DNA of 63,803 bases, counting the filler, from Parasitella parasitica NRRL 2501 (taxonomy: Eukaryota; Fungi; Mucoromycota), in assembly GCA_025201805.1 (NCBI GenBank). It is 14 parts of 14 records of this genome, joined end to end, with 100 filler letters (N's around TTAATTAATTAA, not from the genome) between each part and the next. Parts side by side here need not be neighbours in the genome. Positions count along the whole stretch, not along the records: positions 32,259 to 34,362 come from MU619399.1; 13 more parts are not named here. One strand, written 5' to 3'. The position numbers and the translations under genes were made by a program. The notes below the pieces were generated by a model. That model saw nothing but the letters and a program-made list of their open reading frames with translations, was not told the DNA's origin and ran no database searches. Below are positions 3,050 through 34,478 of this stretch, piece after piece; position 1 is the first letter of the stretch, and each line of letters starts with the position of its first letter.

Positions 3050-4610
3050 AAAATCAGTTTGGTGTACTGTCCAAAATGCTTTTGGTGCATCTGCATAATA
3101 AATTTCGTGCAAAAATCAAAATGTATTTGATGCACTTTTAGTTCTTTTCTTACCACAAATATTAGCTTATTTTATGGATCAGTTTATTTTCGAAGATGGG
3201 AAAGAAAATCTCTACGATGAGCAGGGTGAATCAGTTGCTGTTCTCGCTATGGAAGTAGACGACGAACAATATCCTTTGGATAATATAACCAACTTCAGTG
3301 ACTATACGAACCTGAAGCCACCAGAAAAGCCGATCAAGAAAATCAAAGAAGATGGTTTGAAACAAGAAGGTGGAGATGCAGAACTCGAGGAACCCAAGGG
3401 AACACGGTATCGATCATACAAGAGCGAAGATAAAGCCAAGTTTTTCTTTCTCGTATACGAGAAGCAAATGAGCATCCGTGCAGCCTGCAAAATGGTCAAA
3501 ATCCCTCCCAGCACTGGCCAAAACTGGTACAAGAAGGGTGTGGAAAGTTTGGAGAACGACGAAGAGCTTTCTCACAAAAAAGTGGCCAAATCGTTTGGAA
3601 GACCACCAAAACTTTGTGAGGAGCAGAAAGAGGCTTTGATCAGCATGGTGGATGCCAAACCAGATTTAGTCTTGGAAGAAATGATGGATCAACTGAATGC
3701 TCAATTTATGGGTCTTGAAATTCGAAAGTCTGCTTTGCACGAGTCCTTGACAGAGAAATGCCAATTTTCGCTTACAAGGGCTCATTTCCACTCGGTATAG
3801 CGAAATAGTCCTGAAAAGATTGAAGAAAGATGCAATTGGGTCAAGCAATGGCAAGAAACTGACATGGATTTTTCAAGTAATTGCGTATTTATTGATGAGG
3901 CTGCATTCCATATCAACATGAAGTGCAACTATGCATGGTCGGTTAAAGGAGAGCGATCTGTTGTAAAGGTTCCCAAGACCCGAACAAAAACCACGACAAT
4001 TATCGGGGCCATAACACCCTTTGGCGTGATTAATGTTAAGGTAAAGCTTCCGAAAGTTTATGCAGCACCTTCGAAAAAAAGAAAAGCTACAGGTGGCCCT
4101 ATTCAGACTCAAGCAGATAAGGGAGGAACTGTAACTGGACATACTTCAATTTTGTCGCTAGCACCTTGGATGTGATGGATGAATATAAGGAGTTTGAAGG
4201 CCATTATTTGATAATGGATAATGCACCTATCCACAAAAACAAAGACATACAATTGTATATTGAAAGCAGAGGGTATAGATGTGTCTATATCCAACCTTAT
4301 TCCCCTGAGCTTAACCCAATCGAGCAATTTTGGTCCATTGTGAAAAGCAAACTTAAAAGAGTGGTACTTTTGGAAGAAGAAACACTGTCCACTAGAATTT
4401 CTGATGCTTGTAACAAGGTGATGATCAGCGATCTAGAAGGATTTTGCTGATACTCTGCTTTCAAGTGGGATGACTGTTTAGAAAAAAATGTAACATTAAT
4501 AAACCTACAAATTTGGTGCACAATGCACCAAACACCATTTTGATATTTGCACGAAATTTATTTTGCAGATGCACCAAAAGCATTTTGGACAGTGCACCAA
4601 ACTGCTTTTT
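3050..4610 (+). mobile_element. Tc1/IS630-type DNA transposon with ~85-bp inverted repeats
   Basis: 3050-3134 is the reverse complement of 4524-4610. Iterated (T)GGTGCA(CC) motifs lie at both ends, and the repeats enclose a transposase. Confidence 0.85.
3174..4500 (+). pseudogene. Tc1/IS630 DD34E transposase, disrupted
   Basis: HTH/GRP region, then FIDEAAF, MDNAPIH and YSPELNPIE with 34 residues between the second D and E. In-frame stops at 3798-3800 and 4448-4450, and a frameshift near 4140. Confidence 0.92.
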
Positions 4611-5410: not shown

Positions 5411-5704
5411 CTTAAAGCAAGCGCTCACGGTTCAAGCACCTCTCAAAAAACGAATGGGCATGTATTATCCATCCTTCGCAGTCGCTCACTATAACCTTCT
5501 TGGCTGACTCAATAATACGGTCACTGAAATTTGATGTTACAGTGAGAGTATCACTCTCTTGATACCAGCCTTCACCTTCGACCAGAACTCCTCGATTGGG
5601 TTGAGAAAAGGAGAGTAAGGGGAAAAATAGGCTGCCTTATAACCACGAGATTCAATGAGGTTAGCTCCCTCTGGGCTCTTGTGAATTGGAGCATTGTCCA
5701 TCAC
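5411..5704 (-). pseudogene. Tc1/IS630 transposase C-terminal remnant
   Basis: Minus strand reads VMDNAPIHKSPEGANLIESRGYKAAYFSPYSPFLNPIEEFWSKVKAG. It is cut at 5705 by an LTR. Confidence 0.9.
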
Positions 5705-14066: not shown

Positions 14067-14547
14067 CAGTAGTCGCTCGATTTAAGGCTACTTTTTTTGC
14101 AAGCTTTTTTTAGCCTTATATCGAACATAGCCTTATATCGTGCATGTGACTATTACTTTTAAAACAGTCACATGTATAGTTGATACCGTACTACAGCTAT
14201 TAGATTAATTTGACACACGTCCAGTCTAATCCATTTACTTCTTTATTTTTAAAAAAGCATATTTTGGCAAACAATTATACTATGAGCATTAATCAACAAT
14301 CAAGAGAGCGTCTCACTATCGAGCCAAAGTACGAAATCTGTATGCATAATGCTCAGTTTCCAACACAACCCAAATTTAAATACCGTCAATTTACTGTAAA
14401 ATAAGGCTAAAATTTCGAAAATTTTCAGCCTTATATCGAATAAGGCTAATAAGGCTAACTCCCTGCTTAAAAAAAAATTCATAAAGAATTGTAGCCTTAC
14501 ATCGTGAATAGCCTTATATCGAACAGCCTTAAATCGAGCGGCTACTG
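14067..14547. mobile_element. MITE (Tc1/pogo-type) with TA TSD, inserted in a Fanzor gene
   Basis: TA|CAGTAGTCGCTCGATTTAAGGCT ... AGCCTTAAATCGAGCGGCTACTG|TA, with internal AGCCTTATATCG repeats. Confidence 0.92.
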
Positions 14548-15934
14548 TATAGTATTCGATTGAGGACAAGCGACGTATGTCAGTACCACCATGATAAGAG
14601 ACGAAAGGATCCCGTCTTCCCGGGTCTACAGTGCATGGACGGAAATGCTTGTTCACCTCTTCGCTTGAAAAATCATCTAACTCTAGACAGATATTGTCTT
14701 CTGGAGATGATGGAAGCACTCTTCTAGCAAATAGAACTCTGCACGTATAGCCATCAGTGTACAATCCGTTAAGAAACATTCTTCCTTTTTCTTCAGGCAA
14801 TGCTAGAAGCTTTTCACAACTATATTTTTTTTTTATCAGCAGCTTGATTCATAGATATGTGTATTAGCAGTATGTACCTTTGAATACCCAGCTTTTTGAA
14901 AGCAAAAGCTTGATAGAAGCACCTTTGTTGATGATCAAAAGAGGATTCATTGGCTTGCTTCTTTTGCTTGGCCTCTCGAAAAATTCCGGTCAGGTTCTGG
15001 GCATCAATCTTTATGAACCGCCAGTGCAATGAGGGATTTGGGAATAAACTAAAACGTCTTGGAAGCGGGGGCTTCGTTGAGTCGGCCTTGTCCTTTTGAG
15101 CAGCTTGGGTCCTGTATATATCATCGTATTTGTTGAGAATATACCGTAATGCCGGTAAAATTTTGAAGGGTTCATTGTTTAAGCTTTCTTTAGTCAGTGG
15201 AAGCGTGGACATGCGATTTTTGACCTCTAAAATCAAAGGATTTAAGAAACTTGTAAGATTACTGGCCACATCCGGATCAAATAGGGCAAGAATATCAACG
15301 GATACAGATGAAGGTTGGGAATGTGTAAGCACTTGATCGTATACGTGATTATATACCAAATTCTTGATACAGCCGATCTTCGCATCATAATTTATGTAAT
15401 TTTAGTATAACAATTTGAGAAATTGAACATGTATATTGAAGTGCTTGTTATTATATATCGTTACTTACGGGGTACTCTGTCTTCAGTGTATATATGAAGT
15501 AGTTACATATGATGTTTTCAAAGTTTTCAATATAGTAGTTGTTGTATGTTGTTGCGACAGTCTCGCATGCAGTTGAAAAAGATTGTCCATAATTCTTTAA
15601 TCCATTTTCTGAAACAAACAAGCTACCATTTGTAGTAGCAGACAAGTTAACAAAAGAGCTCGCAAGTTGATCCACATCTAGGTTCTGGCCTGCAGGTCGT
15701 TCCTTTTTCGTATCTTTGTAAGCCTGCAGAGTTGGCTTTACTTTATCTGAGCTGCCCCTAATAACTCTTGAAATAGTATACCAAAAATTTTGATCAAAGA
15801 AGTCATTCGTCAGCTTGGTTGGATGTTGCAGAATAAAATGATTTACAAATAGTTGAGCTTTGAACAAGACTTCACGGACAAAGCTTGATATGTCCTTGAC
15901 TTTTTTTAAAGCATTGGCTTTGTTTGGAGTATCA
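14548..15934 (-). pseudogene. Fanzor1 (eukaryotic TnpB, RNA-guided RuvC nuclease), N-terminal to RuvC-I part, with introns
   Basis: FKAQLFVNHFIL, RFSLFP..HWRFIKID, LYTDGYTCRVLF and RuvC-I-like TVDPGRRD, then RLSSIEYY. GT-AG introns start near 15468 and 14878. Interrupted by a MITE; the start is lost in a gap. Confidence 0.8.
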
Positions 15935-16359
15935 NNNNNNNNNNNNNNNNNNNNNNNNNNNNNNNNNNNNNNNNNNNNTTAATTAATTAANNNNNNNNNN
16001 NNNNNNNNNNNNNNNNNNNNNNNNNNNNNNNNNNTTTGTCTTCTTTGTGCGGTGCCTCGGTGGTAAGTCATATCAAAGTTCCCAGCCGTTGGCCATCCCT
16101 CAAGATCAAACCAATATCCCGGTATTCATGCCGCTCATTTGCTACTACCACACTTTCTTTTTTCCCCTTTTTATCTTTCGTTAGTGCACTGATAAGGGTT
16201 TTTGCAACTGTTTCTTTTAATTTTCTGGAATTCTAGGCTTATGCTCATATCGAGTGCCCATTGAATTCATGTAATATATTAATAAAAACAACCATTAAAC
16301 TGAGCTAGCCCGGCAACCAATTTTTTACCTAATTTGGAACATCCACTTTTTGTAAGAAA

Positions 16360-17658
16360 TTGTATAACACTTCATCCATCCATCTTGATAAAAGCTTCAT
16401 CATTGCATCCTTCGAGAAAATTAACTCATCTACCTCGTTGCCTTCAGATTCTCATCTTTCTGGCTTGAAACGGCCTATTTCGTCTCGATCTCCACCTTTA
16501 TTTGCGTTTGATCTCGTACAACAAATAAAGTCCAAAAGATCCTCAACAACATTTGGAGATCCCAAGCCCGCTCCTCCTGCCCGAATGAATCCATCAACAC
16601 CAGATATGATTGATTTCGGTGTCACTGCCCTCCCGTCTGCCTCTTCTGAGGGCGACTTGAACATTGCGTCCTTCGTTCTCGAAGTTCGCAATCGTTTGAG
16701 TCGTCTAGAGTCTGCTCATGCTGAGATCGCTCGGCTAAGAGCAGCTTTAGCAGAATCAGAGTCTGCTCGTCAGGCTCTTGAAGCTCAAATTTCTCGTCTG
16801 TCTGCTCCTTCTGCTGCACCAGCTCCACCAAAAGCCGCCTCTTTTGCTACTGTTGTTGCTGCTGCTGCTGCTCCTACCTCTGTTTCTGTCCCTGCTCTTT
16901 CTGTTCCTGCTGCTGTTGCTGGCAAAAAGAGAAAAGCGAAATCTGCTGCTCCTCCGCCCTCCATCAAAAAGGCTGCTGCCACTGTAAGTCGTTTGTTTGG
17001 CCCGCACTCTGATATGCCATCGGAATATCAGTTTGTCTATATGGGTATTGCCCGTCGTCGCCCTCTTCAGGAGATCCGTCGCACTTTACAAGGTATCAAG
17101 ATCAACAATTCCCGTGTTCTTGATATCCAGTACCCTATCCCACATGTTGTCTCCTTTCTCGTACACCAAGATTATGTATACACTTTCACCAGTGCAATGC
17201 ATTTGAAAGGTCGTGGCTGCTCTCCTCTTCTTGACTTTGATCCTTGTGATCCCAAAAATCTTTTGGATCCAAAGTATGACTCTCTCTCTCCCTCTCTTCG
17301 TGCCGAAAAAGCATTAGAGATTGAAAATCTTCGTTGTCTCCGTGCGCTGTCGTTTGTCCGTCGCTCTGTTCGTCTTTCTGTTGCTCGTTCTTTCCTCCAC
17401 TATGAAAGAATCACCCAAAAACAATTCGATGCGATTGTAGCAGAAGAATCGTCTTTGCGTGCTGCCGCTGCTCCTCCTCCTGCTCCATCTGCCACTGCTG
17501 TTCAAGATCGCTTGGCCAAGAAACAACGCCTCAGCTATCTGCGCAACCTGCTGTACTTTGATTCAGCCACTGCCAAATCTTTGGCATATACTGAATCCCC
17601 TGCTCTCTCTCCTTCTGCTGTTACTGACACAGAAATGCCAGAAATCTCTGGTGTTTGA
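16360..17658 (+). CDS. LINE ORF1 (gag-like; coiled coil + RRM-like domain), likely ATG at 16585
   Basis: Coiled coil, SFATVV, then YQFVYM..RR..EIRRTL..IKINNSRVLDIQYP...FLVHQDY, which resembles Mucorales LINE ORF1. Followed by a pyrimidine-rich spacer. Confidence 0.75.
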   Translation: MYNTSSIHLDKSFIIASFEKINSSTSLPSDSHLSGLKRPISSRSPPLFAFDLVQQIKSKRSSTTFGDPKPAPPARMNPSTPDMIDFGVTALPSASSEGDLNIASFVLEVRNRLSRLESAHAEIARLRAALAESESARQALEAQISRLSAPSAAPAPPKAASFATVVAAAAAPTSVSVPALSVPAAVAGKKRKAKSAAPPPSIKKAAATVSRLFGPHSDMPSEYQFVYMGIARRRPLQEIRRTLQGIKINNSRVLDIQYPIPHVVSFLVHQDYVYTFTSAMHLKGRGCSPLLDFDPCDPKNLLDPKYDSLSPSLRAEKALEIENLRCLRALSFVRRSVRLSVARSFLHYERITQKQFDAIVAEESSLRAAAAPPPAPSATAVQDRLAKKQRLSYLRNLLYFDSATAKSLAYTESPALSPSAVTDTEMPEISGV

Positions 17659-27485: not shown

Positions 27486-29656
27486 TTTTCAGTTAGGCGG
27501 TTGATGATGATGCTTAATTGTTTTGCATGTAGTTCCATATCATCCGAATGTGTTATACAATAAACATCATCAATATATGTCAAACAAAAGGGTAAATCAC
27601 CTAGGATATCGTCGAGTAAGCGACTCCAGGCGCTGCCAATAAAAGTAATCCCGTATGGACAGGAGGCAAAGCAGTAAGCAGTATTGCGGTGCTGGAAGCT
27701 GGTTTTGACCTGATCTGACACATTTAGGGGTAGTCTCAGGTACGCGGTCGTAACGTCAATACAAGAATAGATTGCAGCACCTGTTGCTTGTTTGAAGATC
27801 TCGGAAGGCAATTTTATGCTATAATTGTCAAGACTCGAGGGCAGTAGAATACTGTTGAGTTCTCGAACGTCCAAGCATGTCCGCCAGGACATAGTACCGT
27901 CACCCTTCCTTTTTGGGGCAAATGTTACAGGATTATTCCAAGGGCTAGGAGGGGCTTTTTTAATGATGCCCTTTTCCAACCAATCTTTCACTGTTTCGTC
28001 AAATACGGGCATTAACTTCTCAGCAATTTTGTATTGACGGCGATTTCTAGTTTCGTTTGGTATCGTATCAAGCTTTATTAGAGCCAGAGGATGAGGACAT
28101 AGTTCTCTAACATCAATAGCTTGATTTCGGTTAATGGCAGGTTCAATGGCTTTCATCAGACGTGCATGCTCACTCTCCGTACCAGCGTTCGATATATTAG
28201 GTACGTATTTTTCATCGACAACGGCATCATCATACAGGATTTTATTATCATCCCAATTAAAGGCGACGCCTGCTAATGTAATGCCCAGTTTTGAGAAGAT
28301 ATCACACCCGAAGAGCGAGTGTTTATCATTTCCTAATTCCTTCATGATGAAGAAAGAATGATGCACATCACGACCATTATATTTGATATGGATGTCGTCC
28401 GTTTTACCTAATAACAGTATATTCTCATTATTTGCCAGTGTTATGTTTACATCGGGGCAAGGGTGGATGGTAATATCGTATTTATTACACAAGTGAGAAG
28501 ACAGGATGGAGATATCAGAGCCTGAATCGATCAGAGCTAGTTACCTATGTATGCCCAACAATAAGAAAGGAGATAATGGAGAATATGGATTTTGATTTAG
28601 TACGTCATCATTTGTATCGACCATTTGTCTTCTCTTGGTAGTACTGATTAGCATACTACACAAAAGATTGCCACATTTACCATTATTATCAGATGATGGG
28701 ACATCGAGGTCATTCATTGTGCTTTCATCGAGGAATTCAGCCATGTCATCGTCGTCAGTAAGAGGATTGATCTGACTCAGGATTTTCATAATATTCTGAG
28801 CGCAGTCAGTCAAATCCTGTTCGTTCACAGGATGCATATTGCTCTGCCTAGCTGTACGCACCATGTTGACACCCGCTGTTTTGGCTAAAGTGTATGGATT
28901 GTTATGGTGGGGATTAGTCAAGTGTTCGGTGAAAGACTTGCGTCTCATTGCAAACGTACCCGTGCGATTCATGTTGACAGGCTGGTCTATGCCCTTTGCA
29001 GCGTTTTGTCGTGCATTTTGAAAAGCAATGCGTTCTGGACAGAAATGACCCGGGTAGAACTTGACTTTTTCACAGTGAGTACACAGTGATCCGGTCTGAG
29101 GTGGGGCAGCAGTGTTATGTCCCTTGCGATCTATTCGCTTGAAGGGGGGCGTCTTTGCCTCATCATTAGAAGCGGCTGGTCCGACCGCCAGATTGTCAGA
29201 GCGTCCACGCTTTCTATCATTGGCGCTCTTGGTCTGTTTTTCTACCTCGACTTGGTATCGTTCTAACAGATCCCGATGCACGGAGGAAGAATGAACTTCC
29301 AAGAGTTCCATGATCGACTGCAAGTTTTCATGAGGTAAAATAGCGTCGCTATTGACGGGAGGGCTAATACTACCTAGAGCTGCCCGCATCGTGGGTAGCT
29401 TTGCTTTCAAATATGTTTTCACATACTCCTTTAATGCAGCGAAACACATGATTGCCATAAAGACAGAATCAGGTACTTGGGCTTTTGCCATCAGGATGAT
29501 AAAGCGTTGAAGGAATTCCATCAATGGTTCGTCAAACCTTTGGCGCAAGCTAATCAACTCTGAAATATAGTCGAATCTAGTGTTTGTCTCCATATATTTT
29601 TTGAGCAGTTTTGCTTTCATGTCATTCCAGGATCTGTAGGCCCTGCGATTTTGTTT
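27486..29656 (-). mobile_element. Ty3/Gypsy LTR retrotransposon internal region (gag, protease, RT)
   Basis: Gag with LRQ..DE...F and CxxC..H.C. Protease LIDSGS. RT motifs SPWNNPV, WRTCLDVRELN, PYGI and YIDD. Order PR-RT, with one in-frame TAA at 28541-28543. Confidence 0.92.
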
Positions 29657-30096
29657 NNNNNNNNNNNNNNNNNNNNNNNNNNNNNNNNNNNNNNNNNNNN
29701 TTAATTAATTAANNNNNNNNNNNNNNNNNNNNNNNNNNNNNNNNNNNNNNNNNNNNCCTTTTTTTCAGCCATTTGACTTTCGAAAGGTAAACGTGGTTAT
29801 TTTTTAATGTAAAGAACGAATCGTTCAAGAACGTTGATATAAAAAAATGAGAGTTATATGAATAACGATTATTTCCAAAGACAATTAAATAAAGAGACTA
29901 CAAGCGATTATATCACGGAGAACGTAGGGTCTTTATTAAAGATTGAAAAGGAAGCCAGGATTGCTCTGGTCCTGGTTTCTAAAAGTCTTTATACAATTCC
30001 ATTTGAATGTCAGTGTCAATATTGGAATTGAGATGAGATTCAACCTTCAATTAATAGGCGAAAACCGACAATGAGAACATCGGCGAGGCCATAGTG

Positions 30097-30544
30097 GAGC
30101 CCTAAATATAATCATCCTAGCTGCCATATCATACCAAGGTGTTGAGGATGTCACAGCAAAAATGGTCAAAGGCAGTACGAATTCAGAGCTTTTTCTTGAA
30201 CTCATAAAGCAGATCGTTGCAAGTCTGGATAGAAGTAATGCAGCCCCTCATTACTTCATTATACTCGTATACATGCCGCCGAATTGATTAAAAATTATTT
30301 TAGATATGCAACAAGGCATCATGTTCACTTTTTGCCAGCATACAGTCCATTTTTAAACCCTATTGAAGAGTGCTTCTCTAAATTGAAAGGCTTGGTCAGA
30401 AGAAAACCTGGATTGGATGCTAAAGAGCTCGTAAATTACATTGGAGAATGCAGCAAACAAATAGTTAGTGATAATTGCCAAGGTTGAGTTGATCATAGCA
30501 TCACTTTTTTTAAAAAATGCCTAGATGAAGACGAGATTTACTGA
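30097..30544 (+). pseudogene. Tc1/IS630 transposase remnant, abutting a short CACTA-like end (30073-30096)
   Basis: IILAAISYQGV...GSTNSELF and FLPAYSPFLNPIEECFSKLK, with stops and deletions. Confidence 0.85.
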
Positions 30545-31641: not shown

Positions 31642-32259
31642 CGCATATTAGAAGATTAGCTGCTGCATCAATTTTCTATAATTAATATGTTGTTTAAGCT
31701 TTGAGTTGAACTTTAGTATTCGCAAACAAACAACGCCTATCGTTAAATGACCAAAAAAACCAGGGCGTAGCAAATAATTTTGATATTTAATGCGACAGTA
31801 ACTTACCAATACATCGACCATTTAGATTGAATTTGGAGCTGTCATTTTGAATTGATTGAGTTTTATCTGCTTTTATTATTGCATTCGTAAGCAATAGTAA
31901 TATTAAAGGTTTCGTAAAAAGAGGAGAAGAGAAAAATTGAAAATAAAAACAGTTTACATCATGGTATAATAGTAATCTACTGTAGGTCACATAACCAAAT
32001 CTTTGTAGCCAGGGAAACGTTTGCCACATTAGTTGCTGTGCATACTCACTAGCTGCACTAAATGAACGAATATAAAATGCACTGCACCAATGCTGACAAT
32101 AAACATGATGCTTTTCTTTTCGAGATGTATATCAATTTCATCTTTGTGTCAAAATACANNNNNNNNNNNNNNNNNNNNNNNNNNNNNNNNNNNNNNNNNN
32201 NNTTAATTAATTAANNNNNNNNNNNNNNNNNNNNNNNNNNNNNNNNNNNNNNNNNNNNA

Positions 32260-32433
32260 TTGAAGTGTAAAACTTGCAATATTTACTGGAATCGCGATGC
32301 CGTGGCCTCGAAGAACATGCTCACCATTGCCACATCAATTTGGTGTGGAAATGGCCGCCCCCAGGTCTTCAAGAGACATACCGCCACCTCCAATGTGGTT
32401 GTTGCTGCTCACTCCGGTGAGTCAGCAACTTAA
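32260..32433 (+). CDS. Fanzor/TnpB C-terminus (Zn-ribbon CxxC + RuvC-III), 5' part lost in gap
   Basis: Not in the ORF track. It reads LKCKTCNIYWNRDAVASKNMLTIA..IWCGNGRPQVFKR...*, and CxxC-x3-WNRD-x2-A-x2-N is the TnpB/Fanzor signature. Confidence 0.88.
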   Translation: MKCKTCNIYWNRDAVASKNMLTIATSIWCGNGRPQVFKRHTATSNVVVAAHSGESAT

Positions 32434-32480
32434 AGATATTGCAGGTAAAAAGCTGTAGCAATTCTGATTCTTCTGAAAGA
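32380..32480 (+). ncRNA. Candidate Fanzor omegaRNA scaffold
   Basis: Hairpins GCCAC/GTGGT, GTTGCTG-CTCAC-TCCG-GTGAG-T-CAGCAAC and ATTGC..GCAAT overlap the ORF 3' end, where Fanzor omegaRNAs typically lie. Boundaries are inferred. Confidence 0.5.
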
Positions 32481-32489
32481 TACTAACAT

Positions 32490-32578
32490 TGTCTCCATGT
32501 TCGTACTCATGTCCCATTTTCATCTTGTTGTCCCATTTTCGTATTCGTGACCCATTTTTGTAATCGTGTCCCAACTCA
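32490..32578. repeat. ~20-bp periodic GTCCCATTTT motif array
   Basis: Five degenerate copies just downstream of the Fanzor end. Confidence 0.7.
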
Positions 32579-32640
32579 ATTTGGAAATGACCAAAATTTA
32601 TTTTCATTGGCCCAACCTAGTTTCGTTAACTGTAGTAAAG

Positions 32641-32794
32641 TGTCACCTAAATCATCTCACATACAAATGAAAACTAAGGTAGCGATTGTTGTCGATTACT
32701 TGATTTTTTTCTTGTTGTCGACAACAAGAGAAAATTAAGGTGGTTGTCGCTAAACCGCTATCTCATTTGTATGTGAGACGATGGTTTAGGTGGC
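32641..32794. repeat. ~155-bp foldback (MITE-like hairpin)
   Basis: TGTCACCTAAATCATCTCACATACAAATGA pairs with TCATTTGTATGTGAGACGATGGTTTAGGTGGCA. Central perfect palindrome CTTGTTGTCGACAACAAG. Confidence 0.8.
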
Positions 32795-34478
32795 ATTGCT
32801 TTATTACTAGTAGTCGTTAAAGGCCTTGCTGAAGTCTTCTGGTAGGGTTGATTGTTACCGGTGTATGCATTGTTTCTCCACATCCAGAATGCATTGTAAC
32901 TAGTAGTATTCAATCCGTTGTACTTGAACGTTCGTGATACTCCTCCTATGAATTTTACATTGATGGGATATTCACCCTTATTAATATCTTTCTCCTCCCC
33001 CAATGCAATGATTTTATTAATTTATTATTATCATTTTCTTTGATCAAAACAAGTTGGATGAACCGAAAAAATGCACTTTTTTTTAGTTCTTTCATCTTTT
33101 TACAGTTTCTCCTTGTTAGGACACTTGCCAAAACATTTGGCAGAATGCTCGCTAATTCTAGTCATCAGTGTATCTTTTTCTACAATCTTTTTATGGTTTC
33201 TGAAAAAAAAAGTTCAAGTAAATGTTAAGTATTAGGGTTTCTGATAACAAATCCCCTATTTCTGATAAAAGCTGAGAAGTTTCTAAGGAAAGATGAGCCA
33301 CACCTGTTTTATCCTTTTACTATAAAGAAAGGTATACTTGTGGCATCAAAAATACTTACTTTGTAGAGATGTGTTGTGTACTAGAATTGATATTGACGTG
33401 GTATCATCTCCAGATAGATATTTTTTACAGCTTAAAAGCAAGAAATTTATCTTCATGTGTCGTTTTTGATTGATTTTCATAATCAAAAGTGCCCTGAAAA
33501 CAACAGAAATAGTATGCATTGGGAAAAAACCATATTATATATGATTTTGGTGCAATTTGAGCATGATTTTTTTTTCGATGCAAAATGACGGATTTTTTCG
33601 ATTTTTTCCTTGTATCCACACATCCAAAATCGTCGATTATGTGTTATCCTCGATTTTGACCACAAAAATGCAACTTTTTACTATAGCATATATTGGAGGA
33701 AAATGATCGTAAAAGACCGTTCTTTGGTCTGAAAGAGTGGAAATGCGCTCTGGTTAAACAAAATATTGACTTTTTCCTCTTGATCTGTTTTTGAGGTTTT
33801 CTCGACATAATTCCTTCCATGAACATACGGGGGTTATCAAAACGACACCATCGTGTAGAGCGTCCAAAAATACAGCCATTACCATAGACTGACAACCGTG
33901 GTATGAATAGTATCAGAAGATGATATCTTGCCTCAAAAGAGTAATTTGTTTTTCGAATTATCCAAATGGAGTTTCTGAAAGAACTTTTTTCTTCCTAATT
34001 TTGAATATGTTTAATCTCCGCTATCGAAGAAAAATGGTGCTTTTTTGAAGGAAGCATTAGCTTTGAGAAGCTATAGCTTACCCAATTCAAGCGAAATTTT
34101 TTTGCATCTAGTTTACCTAGATAATGTGCTTTTTGGGTTTTTAGTGGTAGTACTTGCATGCCTGTACCTGGCCTGACGATCTCACGCTCCAATTTTGAAA
34201 AATACTTTTCCGAAAAAAGTCAGAAAAGTCGCTACCTTCATTTGATTTCAAATTAAAAAATACAAAAACTTGCTCTAAACTATGCAATTATGTAATCAAA
34301 AGATGCCTTATAGTCTAATGCATTACTTTGCATTACTTGTTTTTGTGTTTGAGATCGCTAAANNNNNNNNNNNNNNNNNNNNNNNNNNNNNNNNNNNNNN
34401 NNNNNNTTAATTAATTAANNNNNNNNNNNNNNNNNNNNNNNNNNNNNNNNNNNNNNNNNNNNAATATCTATTTTAGTT

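Follow-up and report, generated by a model that had tools for sequence, protein, structure and literature searches.

Splicing probably joins a hairpin in the last codons of a Fanzor1 gene to the tip of its transposon in Parasitella parasitica

Introduction

Where does a Fanzor1 nuclease obtain its guide when the structured RNA at the end of its gene lies well inside the transposon that carries it? In Fanzor1 systems, the end of the terminal inverted repeat (TIR) and the target-site duplication (TSD) are described as lying within the omegaRNA scaffold, which has a terminal stem, and the RNA extends about 15 nt beyond the TSD (Yoon 2023; Saito 2023, PMC10432273; review PMC13565253). The first stem-loop has 7 bp, and in both SpuFz1 and PpFz1 a further stem precedes the guide (Xu 2024, PMC11423790). 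How Fanzor1 could join transposons whose long ends must stay fixed for the transposase is treated as an open question (Yoon 2023; PMC13565253).

We analyzed a stretch of 63,803 nucleotides (hereafter the window) from P. parasitica NRRL 2501 (GCA_025201805.1), which consists of 17 pieces with 13 spacers and three gaps between them. A preliminary description of this DNA had placed a Fanzor C-terminus at the start of one contig, overlapped by a candidate omegaRNA whose scaffold would end near position 32478 and be followed by the guide. Our results suggest another arrangement. The locus appears to be the right end of a Fanzor1-carrying, TA-ending transposon at which splicing joins the hairpin in the last codons to the element's tip, the TA, and the flank, and the joined RNA is likely the omegaRNA; we consider this reading probable.

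Results

A Fanzor1 C-terminus of a young Mucor-type family

The last coding stretch of the gene (32259–32433, + strand) contains the second CxxC half of the zinc finger, the RuvC-III motif WNRD, and a conserved tail. It opens a contig of 2,104 bp directly behind an N spacer, so that its 5' side is cut off by the contig start. The frame at 32260–32433 encodes 57 residues (LKCKTC..WNRD..ASKN..RP.VFKR) and closes with the stop codon TAA at 32431–32433. This 57-residue query matched SpuFz1 in the PDB (E 1.2e-4), as well as 7 of 24 candidate proteins at 75–96% identity, all seven from Mucor or Parasitella. A profile built from 12 members of the family retrieved SpuFz1 as its best solved-structure match (E 2.4e-19, the next match being at 0.034), with an alignment that spans RuvC-I, the shifted Glu, the zinc finger, and WNRD. 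Pfam returned a sub-threshold match to PF07282 alone (15.6 bits, 26.3 being required). The frame, the SpuFz1 match, and the homologues therefore agree on the Fanzor C-terminus ending at TAA 32433 that had been described previously, and on sequence grounds the fragment is a Fanzor1 rather than a Fanzor2 or TnpB.

Scanning 589 metagenome stretches yielded a single related locus (L001), which stops short of the hairpin described below. It matches the window at 97.3% over 1,390 bp (14548–15934) and at 94.9% over 32259–32376. The first of these regions is the 5' and middle part of a same-family Fanzor1 gene on the − strand of another contig. Because L001 matches both regions, the kinship between the fragment and the 14.5–15.9 kb piece, which had been left open, can be settled: as judged from these alignments, both belong to one young Mucor-type Fanzor1 family. 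L001 is a nearly whole gene, with 803 stop-free codons after removal of five GT-AG introns (58–85 nt), and its catalytic motifs are all in place (DPG, NEFKTSK, CNNC, CKTC, and WNRD). The RuvC-I motif reads TVDPG both in L001 and in the 14.6-kb piece of the window, neither of which shares a contig with the 32259 fragment. The catalytic Glu, some six residues ahead of the C4 zinc finger, the zinc finger itself, and the RD motif are read as NEFKTSK-CNNC..CKTC..WNRD in L001, of which the window fragment carries CKTC and WNRD; a TDG motif is also present in L001. No relatives were found in the viral (0 of 11 stretches) or prokaryote (0 of 39 stretches) collections, and the end motif of the element had no match in either.

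Two further observations concern these gene copies. The copy at 14548–15934 is split at a TA, within its RuvC coding sequence, by a 481-bp insert (14067–14547) that has inverted ends and is bounded by TA at either side. In L001 the insertion site is empty, and the insert and the Fanzor element do not share the same ends. In addition, L001 (2521–2790) and the homologue P0003 present a long basic stretch rich in Arg and Lys between RuvC-I and RuvC-II, which may be the counterpart of the FRI insertion of PpFz1, or may represent nuclear-import signals.

A conserved hairpin in the last codons

The main hairpin (32401–32429, + strand) is predicted to fold into a 7-bp lower stem, one bulge, and a 5-bp upper stem, its 12 pairs having pair probabilities of at least 0.9. 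The predicted lower stem (32401–32407 with 32423–32429) equals in length the 7-bp first stem-loop of Fanzor1 RNAs, and the hairpin is our candidate for omegaRNA stem-loop 1. A small 5-bp hairpin lies ahead of it (32383–32399, + strand) and is of uncertain membership in the mature RNA. The folding of 32260–32500 gave a z score of −3.35 and that of 32380–32480 a z score of −3.03, with 1 of 200 shuffles as good in each case. Thus, both the strong hairpin noted previously and the weaker stems on its two sides reappear in the predicted fold. Rfam returned nothing at gathering score, and none of its four weak matches falls within 32380–32444.

We then compared the tails of the homologues, counting the 17 of 40 that have a C-terminal tail and leaving out the 23 that lack it. 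The tail matches the frame of the window in 14 of the 17 and has no clear match in two. In the remaining one, P0009, it is found in the +1 frame (score 60 vs 21; 0 of 1000 shuffles), the RuvC region of this protein being 50% identical. A tail that is shifted in frame and yet kept indicates selection on nucleotides, and this points to conservation of the tail at the nucleotide level. The amino-acid changes of P0006, P0011, and P0026 force a swap from U-A to C-G at 32402/32428, and the next codon change in the same tails breaks the pair 32405/32425 in the same register. Two stem changes were seen in run X22, one of which keeps its pair as G-U (32405) while the other breaks it (32424), so that covariation in the stem is mixed overall.

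The element continues to 32632

The end of the element was located using four DNA runs with four organism labels, compared over 32259–33200. Their contigs go on from the gene tail past 32478 into a repeat-rich stretch, and in all four runs contigs depart from the window sequence behind 32634, each with different letters. The right end of the element is therefore CTG at 32632, followed by TA, in all four runs, a TA being characteristic of Mariner-type elements (Bao and Jurka 2013, PMC3627910), and the sequence up to 32632 lies within the element and is common to the strains. Such a CTG-TA end with variable flanks suggests that the TA is probably a target-site duplication, as read from this one end, and it is possible that some of the loose ends at 32634 belong to other elements sharing the repeat. 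A probable TIR of about 120 bp (32510–32632, no strand assigned) is delimited by loose ends before 32509–32514 and behind 32634, and its depth is higher; the contig depths (59–2,400 in the tail and several-fold higher at the end) were not taken as copy numbers. Subterminal direct repeats with a 19-bp period (32495–32589, + strand) are probably binding sites of the transposase.

The hairpin thus lies about 200 nt inside the element, and a contiguous RNA ending near 32478–32500 therefore cannot take its guide from the flank. The scaffold end near 32478 with the guide following, as proposed earlier, is contradicted by an element that runs to 32632 and a flank that starts at 32635; nor does 32478 mark the edge between scaffold and flank, since the sequence around it (32445–32620) is absent from the probable-RNA contigs presented below. 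A boundary near 32458–32478 would be compatible only with an RNA that stays unspliced and carries a fixed internal guide. The earlier proposal of an omegaRNA overlapping the end of the ORF consequently survives in part: a conserved structured RNA over the last codons is retained and a contiguous scaffold reaching into the flank is not.

Other repeats were noted around this locus and along the window. The flank at 32641–32795 is a long imperfect palindrome with nested inverted arms, partly present in X5 and X1. It seems that the element inserted at the border of a hairpin or MITE-like repeat; the guide of this copy might therefore match other copies of the repeat. Three pieces with the motif YSP.LNPIE, which we take to be IS630/Tc1-mariner-like transposases, lie at about 4217–4330 (+), 5617–5700 (−), and 30075–30487 (+), and none of the three adjoins the end sequence of the Fanzor element. 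Pieces of gag, protease, and reverse-transcriptase frames with a YIDD motif (27486–29656, − strand) presumably derive from an LTR-like retrotransposon, and a 441-codon open frame rich in Ala, Pro, and Ser (16333–17658, + strand) presumably resembles a non-LTR ORF1-like gene. Similar T-rich stretches near 10–12 kb, 41–42 kb, and 51–52 kb suggest, by their composition skew, further copies.

A probable 176-nt intron between the hairpin and the tip

The sequence between the hairpin and the tip of the element presents the signals of an intron (32445–32620, + strand, 176 nt) that begins 11 nt behind the stop codon. The upstream exon ends with TGCAG (32440–32444, + strand). The 5' donor is GTAAAA (32445–32450, + strand) in the window, and all four of the other DNA runs have G at 32449 (GTAAG). 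With A at +5 the donor of this copy is weaker, yet three of the five L001 introns also lack G at +5. The sequence TACTAAC (32481–32487, + strand) is the predicted branch point, 133 nt ahead of the acceptor. No AG occurs from 32488 to 32618, and the next AG is the acceptor at 32619–32620; the lack of AG over this stretch weighs modestly in favor of the intron (P 0.012 by shuffling), 6 of the 3,269 gaps free of AG on the + strand being longer. The first 55 nt resemble a normal short intron of the Fanzor gene, with the branch motif at nt 39, but 138 nt separate this motif from the intron end, compared to 15–29 nt in the five coding introns of L001. The end of the element may thus have been inserted between the branch point and the acceptor.

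We searched for the joined form in four RNA or probable-RNA runs: X15, X16, X21 (0 reads), and X22 (34 reads). The RNA status of X15 and X16 is a guess, for which reason we refer to them as probable-RNA runs, and their contigs show neither RNA ends nor strand. The junction from 32444 to 32621 had been predicted beforehand from the sequence, and it was then found to the base in contigs of both X15 and X16. These contigs align with 32259–32444 and continue with the 14 letters of 32621–32634 (with C at 32627). The X16 contig (2,146 nt) extends 589 nt further into a flank unlike that of the window, and the X15 contig ends right behind the TA, which is what a branching into several copies would produce. 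Positions 32454–32498 are uncovered in the contigs of both runs. The 34 reads of X22 gave no listed joint; their depth steps fit three of five reads stopping at 32444 and two continuing unspliced, a pattern that other read ends could explain too. Three of the four DNA runs have a contig that bridges 32444 with at least 31 letters on each side, and the 32444/32621 joint is absent from the six listed joints and from the 24 listed of 52 loose ends in the DNA runs. With its GT donor, branch motif, and AG acceptor, the segment is likely a U2-type spliceosomal intron that is absent in the probable-RNA contigs of two strains. Spliceosomal cleavage limited to its first step, as in fungal telomerase RNA, was considered in view of the distant acceptor and dropped because joined exons were seen. 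Lying only 11 nt beyond the stop codon, the junction would escape nonsense-mediated decay under the 50-nt rule.

The spliced RNA as the predicted omegaRNA

Joining the two exons yields, for 32395–32634, an RNA of 64 nt that is predicted to fold into the main hairpin and, after a linker of 10 nt, a second stem of 7 bp closing on the TA. The 5' arm of this predicted stem-loop 2 is the upstream TGCAG, and its 3' arm is formed by the downstream exon part (32621–32634, + strand), i.e., the last 12 nt of the element and the TA. The spliced 64-mer folds with a z score of −5.2 (0 of 200 shuffles as good), compared to −3.0 (2 of 200) for an unspliced 84-mer, whose second stem is weaker. The latter stem closes on an internal CTGTA (32453–32457) and taken alone has a z score of −0.7 (41 of 200). 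This internal CTGTA could be an older element end, giving a fixed guide. The junction stem itself comes partly free because the CAG of the donor is complementary to the terminal CTG of the element: a stem of equal stability arises at 6 of the 71 other sites with CAG-GT and at 7 of the 341 with AG-GT in the window (2–8% of control donors), such that the junction stem exceeds chance modestly.

Only the spliced form is predicted to end like a Fanzor1 omegaRNA, with the tip of the TIR and the TSD in the closing stem and a guide from the variable flank behind it. In contrast to a scaffold forming one unbroken stretch at the element end, the predicted scaffold is split by the 176-nt intron. The predicted guide of this copy (32635–32649, + strand) has its length set by analogy to the 14–15 nt of SpuFz1 and lies in flank that differs between copies. 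Within the 64-kb window, every potential target of either candidate guide has 3 or more mismatches in 15. Based on these folds and contigs, the spliced RNA is likely the omegaRNA.

Discussion

Two published omegaRNAs of Parasitella, ID 58 (PpFz1) and ID 59, offer a comparison; they are the sole rows with TGCAGGTAA in the table of Saito 2023 (PMC10432273) as consulted. Both have a 7-bp first stem and, directly behind this hairpin, TGCAG-GTAAG (ID 58 as read through the target oligo of Xu 2024, PMC11423790; ID 59 from the Saito table). By eye, both present a CTAA(T) motif at nt 37 of the putative intron, compared to nt 39 in the 32445 intron, followed by a pyrimidine run, and their 'guides' are alike across the two loci. 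These Mucorales RNAs were defined in Saccharomyces cerevisiae and are unspliced, with the TAM given as 'N.A.' in 2023 (Saito 2023, PMC10432273). PpFz1 was later found to cut DNA in vitro with an ATN TAM and the unspliced RNA (Xu 2024, PMC11423790); splicing is therefore dispensable for activity there. PpFz1 differs from our family in belonging to another protein subfamily, and it did not match in our structure searches, though the PDB copy used may not contain it. As their sequences read, the RNAs of ID 58 and ID 59 may be intron-retained forms. A wider reading would be that, in Mucorales, the guide of Fanzor1 transposons is assembled by the host spliceosome. The scaffold would be split by an intron that distant families have in common, splicing would give a guide programmed by the flank and retention a fixed internal guide, and splicing would set the target; the published PpFz1 omegaRNA and cryo-EM structure would then represent a yeast-made, intron-retained form in which intron sequence was taken for the guide. 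We regard this generalization as a tentative proposal, somewhat short of an even chance.

It is unlikely, in our estimate, that the working omegaRNA is instead the unspliced one, with stem-loop 2 on the internal CTGTA, a fixed intron-derived guide, and splicing that serves the mRNA only or acts as an off-switch of the guide as in IStrons. The unspliced RNA is indeed predicted to form a second stem from the same 5' arm, a yeast-made RNA of this kind supports binding and cutting by PpFz1 (Xu 2024, PMC11423790), two X22 reads seem to continue unspliced, and in IStrons splicing and guide function are mutually exclusive (PMC10690162). A fixed internal guide, however, is unable to mark empty insertion sites, and it has no close target in the window; its stem taken alone is no better than shuffles, X15 and X16 show only the spliced form, and yeast may simply leave this intron unspliced. 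The donor and branch motif recur at the same place behind stem-loop 1 at two distant Parasitella loci with protein-bound RNAs, and the junction coincides with the point at which the Fanzor1 layout requires the tip of the element. Together with a tail kept at the nucleotide level, these observations make it improbable that we are dealing with an ordinary 3'-UTR intron of a read-through mRNA, with a junction stem that follows incidentally from the splice and TIR consensus sequences and an omegaRNA made otherwise or lost, even if the gene has five other introns and some control donors give an equal stem.

We see very little chance that the joined form is DNA, i.e., that deleted or retro-copied copies of the element exist and that X15 and X16 are DNA or carry DNA. 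Their RNA label is a guess, rare variants are dropped from DNA contigs and 24 of the 52 loose ends are listed, and the DNA and RNA runs come from different samples. The part that is absent, however, starts with GT, ends with AG, contains TACTAAC, and is identical in two organisms; the DNA runs X1 and X3, with the same organism labels, cross 32444 unbroken, and a copy without most of its end could hardly transpose.

If the spliced RNA is the omegaRNA, the element could work as follows. The Fanzor mRNA would read through the element end into host DNA, and the spliceosome would remove the repeat-rich end from this read-through mRNA. Fanzor would then capture the 3' part, which would be trimmed to a scaffold of about 65–80 nt and a flank guide of about 15 nt. 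The complex would cut empty sites, made up of the flank and a motif whose last letters are TA, and repair on the template of a filled copy would help the element return once a transposase encoded elsewhere had excised it by cut-and-paste. Thanks to the intron, the DNA could retain a long repeat-rich end for the transposase and the RNA a compact scaffold. This scheme resembles the 'restorative homing' model, which was demonstrated for TnpB, not for the Fanzor element at 32632 (review PMC13565253).

The element at 32632 resembles Spu-1 of Spizellomyces punctatus, in which SpuFz1 lies in an inverted-repeat element with its own transposase not in view, the scaffold includes the right end, and the guide comes from the variable flank (PMC10432273). 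The scaffold of SpuFz1 is, however, an unbroken 75 nt between the stop codon and a 30-nt repeat (PMC10432273), whereas at 32401–32632 about 200 nt separate the hairpin from the end, the scaffold overlaps the ORF, and the intron closes the gap. In IStrons, one transposon end likewise serves as DNA end, intron, and omegaRNA (Zedaveinyte et al., PMC10690162). There, self-splicing by a bacterial group I intron takes out the element as a whole, in competition with the omegaRNA (PMC10690162), whereas the 32445 intron is of spliceosomal type and internal to the element, and the omegaRNA would arise through its excision. The 32445 intron shows no Rfam group I match and has GT-AG ends. Fanzor1 elements borne by mariner have TA duplications, and ten MCi families of Fanzor1 are listed in Mucor circinelloides (Bao and Jurka 2013, PMC3627910). 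MCi-2, -4, and -5 differ by their 6–12-bp duplications, and no RNA is described in the part of that paper treating these families (PMC3627910); the element at 32632 may belong to the remaining seven.

The literature searches, which covered few subscription papers, yielded nothing on a spliced omegaRNA of Fanzor; the word 'intron' has 0 occurrences in the main texts of Saito 2023, Yoon 2023, and Xu 2024, and the introns of Fanzor genes are treated in Jiang 2023. The nearest concept in the literature found is the IStron, where splicing opposes the guide (PMC10690162 as consulted). The guide layout of Fanzor1 is itself already known, and what would be new is an omegaRNA scaffold split by an intron. 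If true, this would be an RNA-guided nuclease with a guide RNA assembled by mRNA-type splicing. OmegaRNAs mapped by yeast expression or by contiguous conservation may then be wrong for intron-rich hosts, PpFz1 included, and the spliced form provides a compact natural scaffold and a boundary that are directly testable. Finally, a guide built by splicing would offer an answer to how Fanzor1 joined transposons with fixed long ends.
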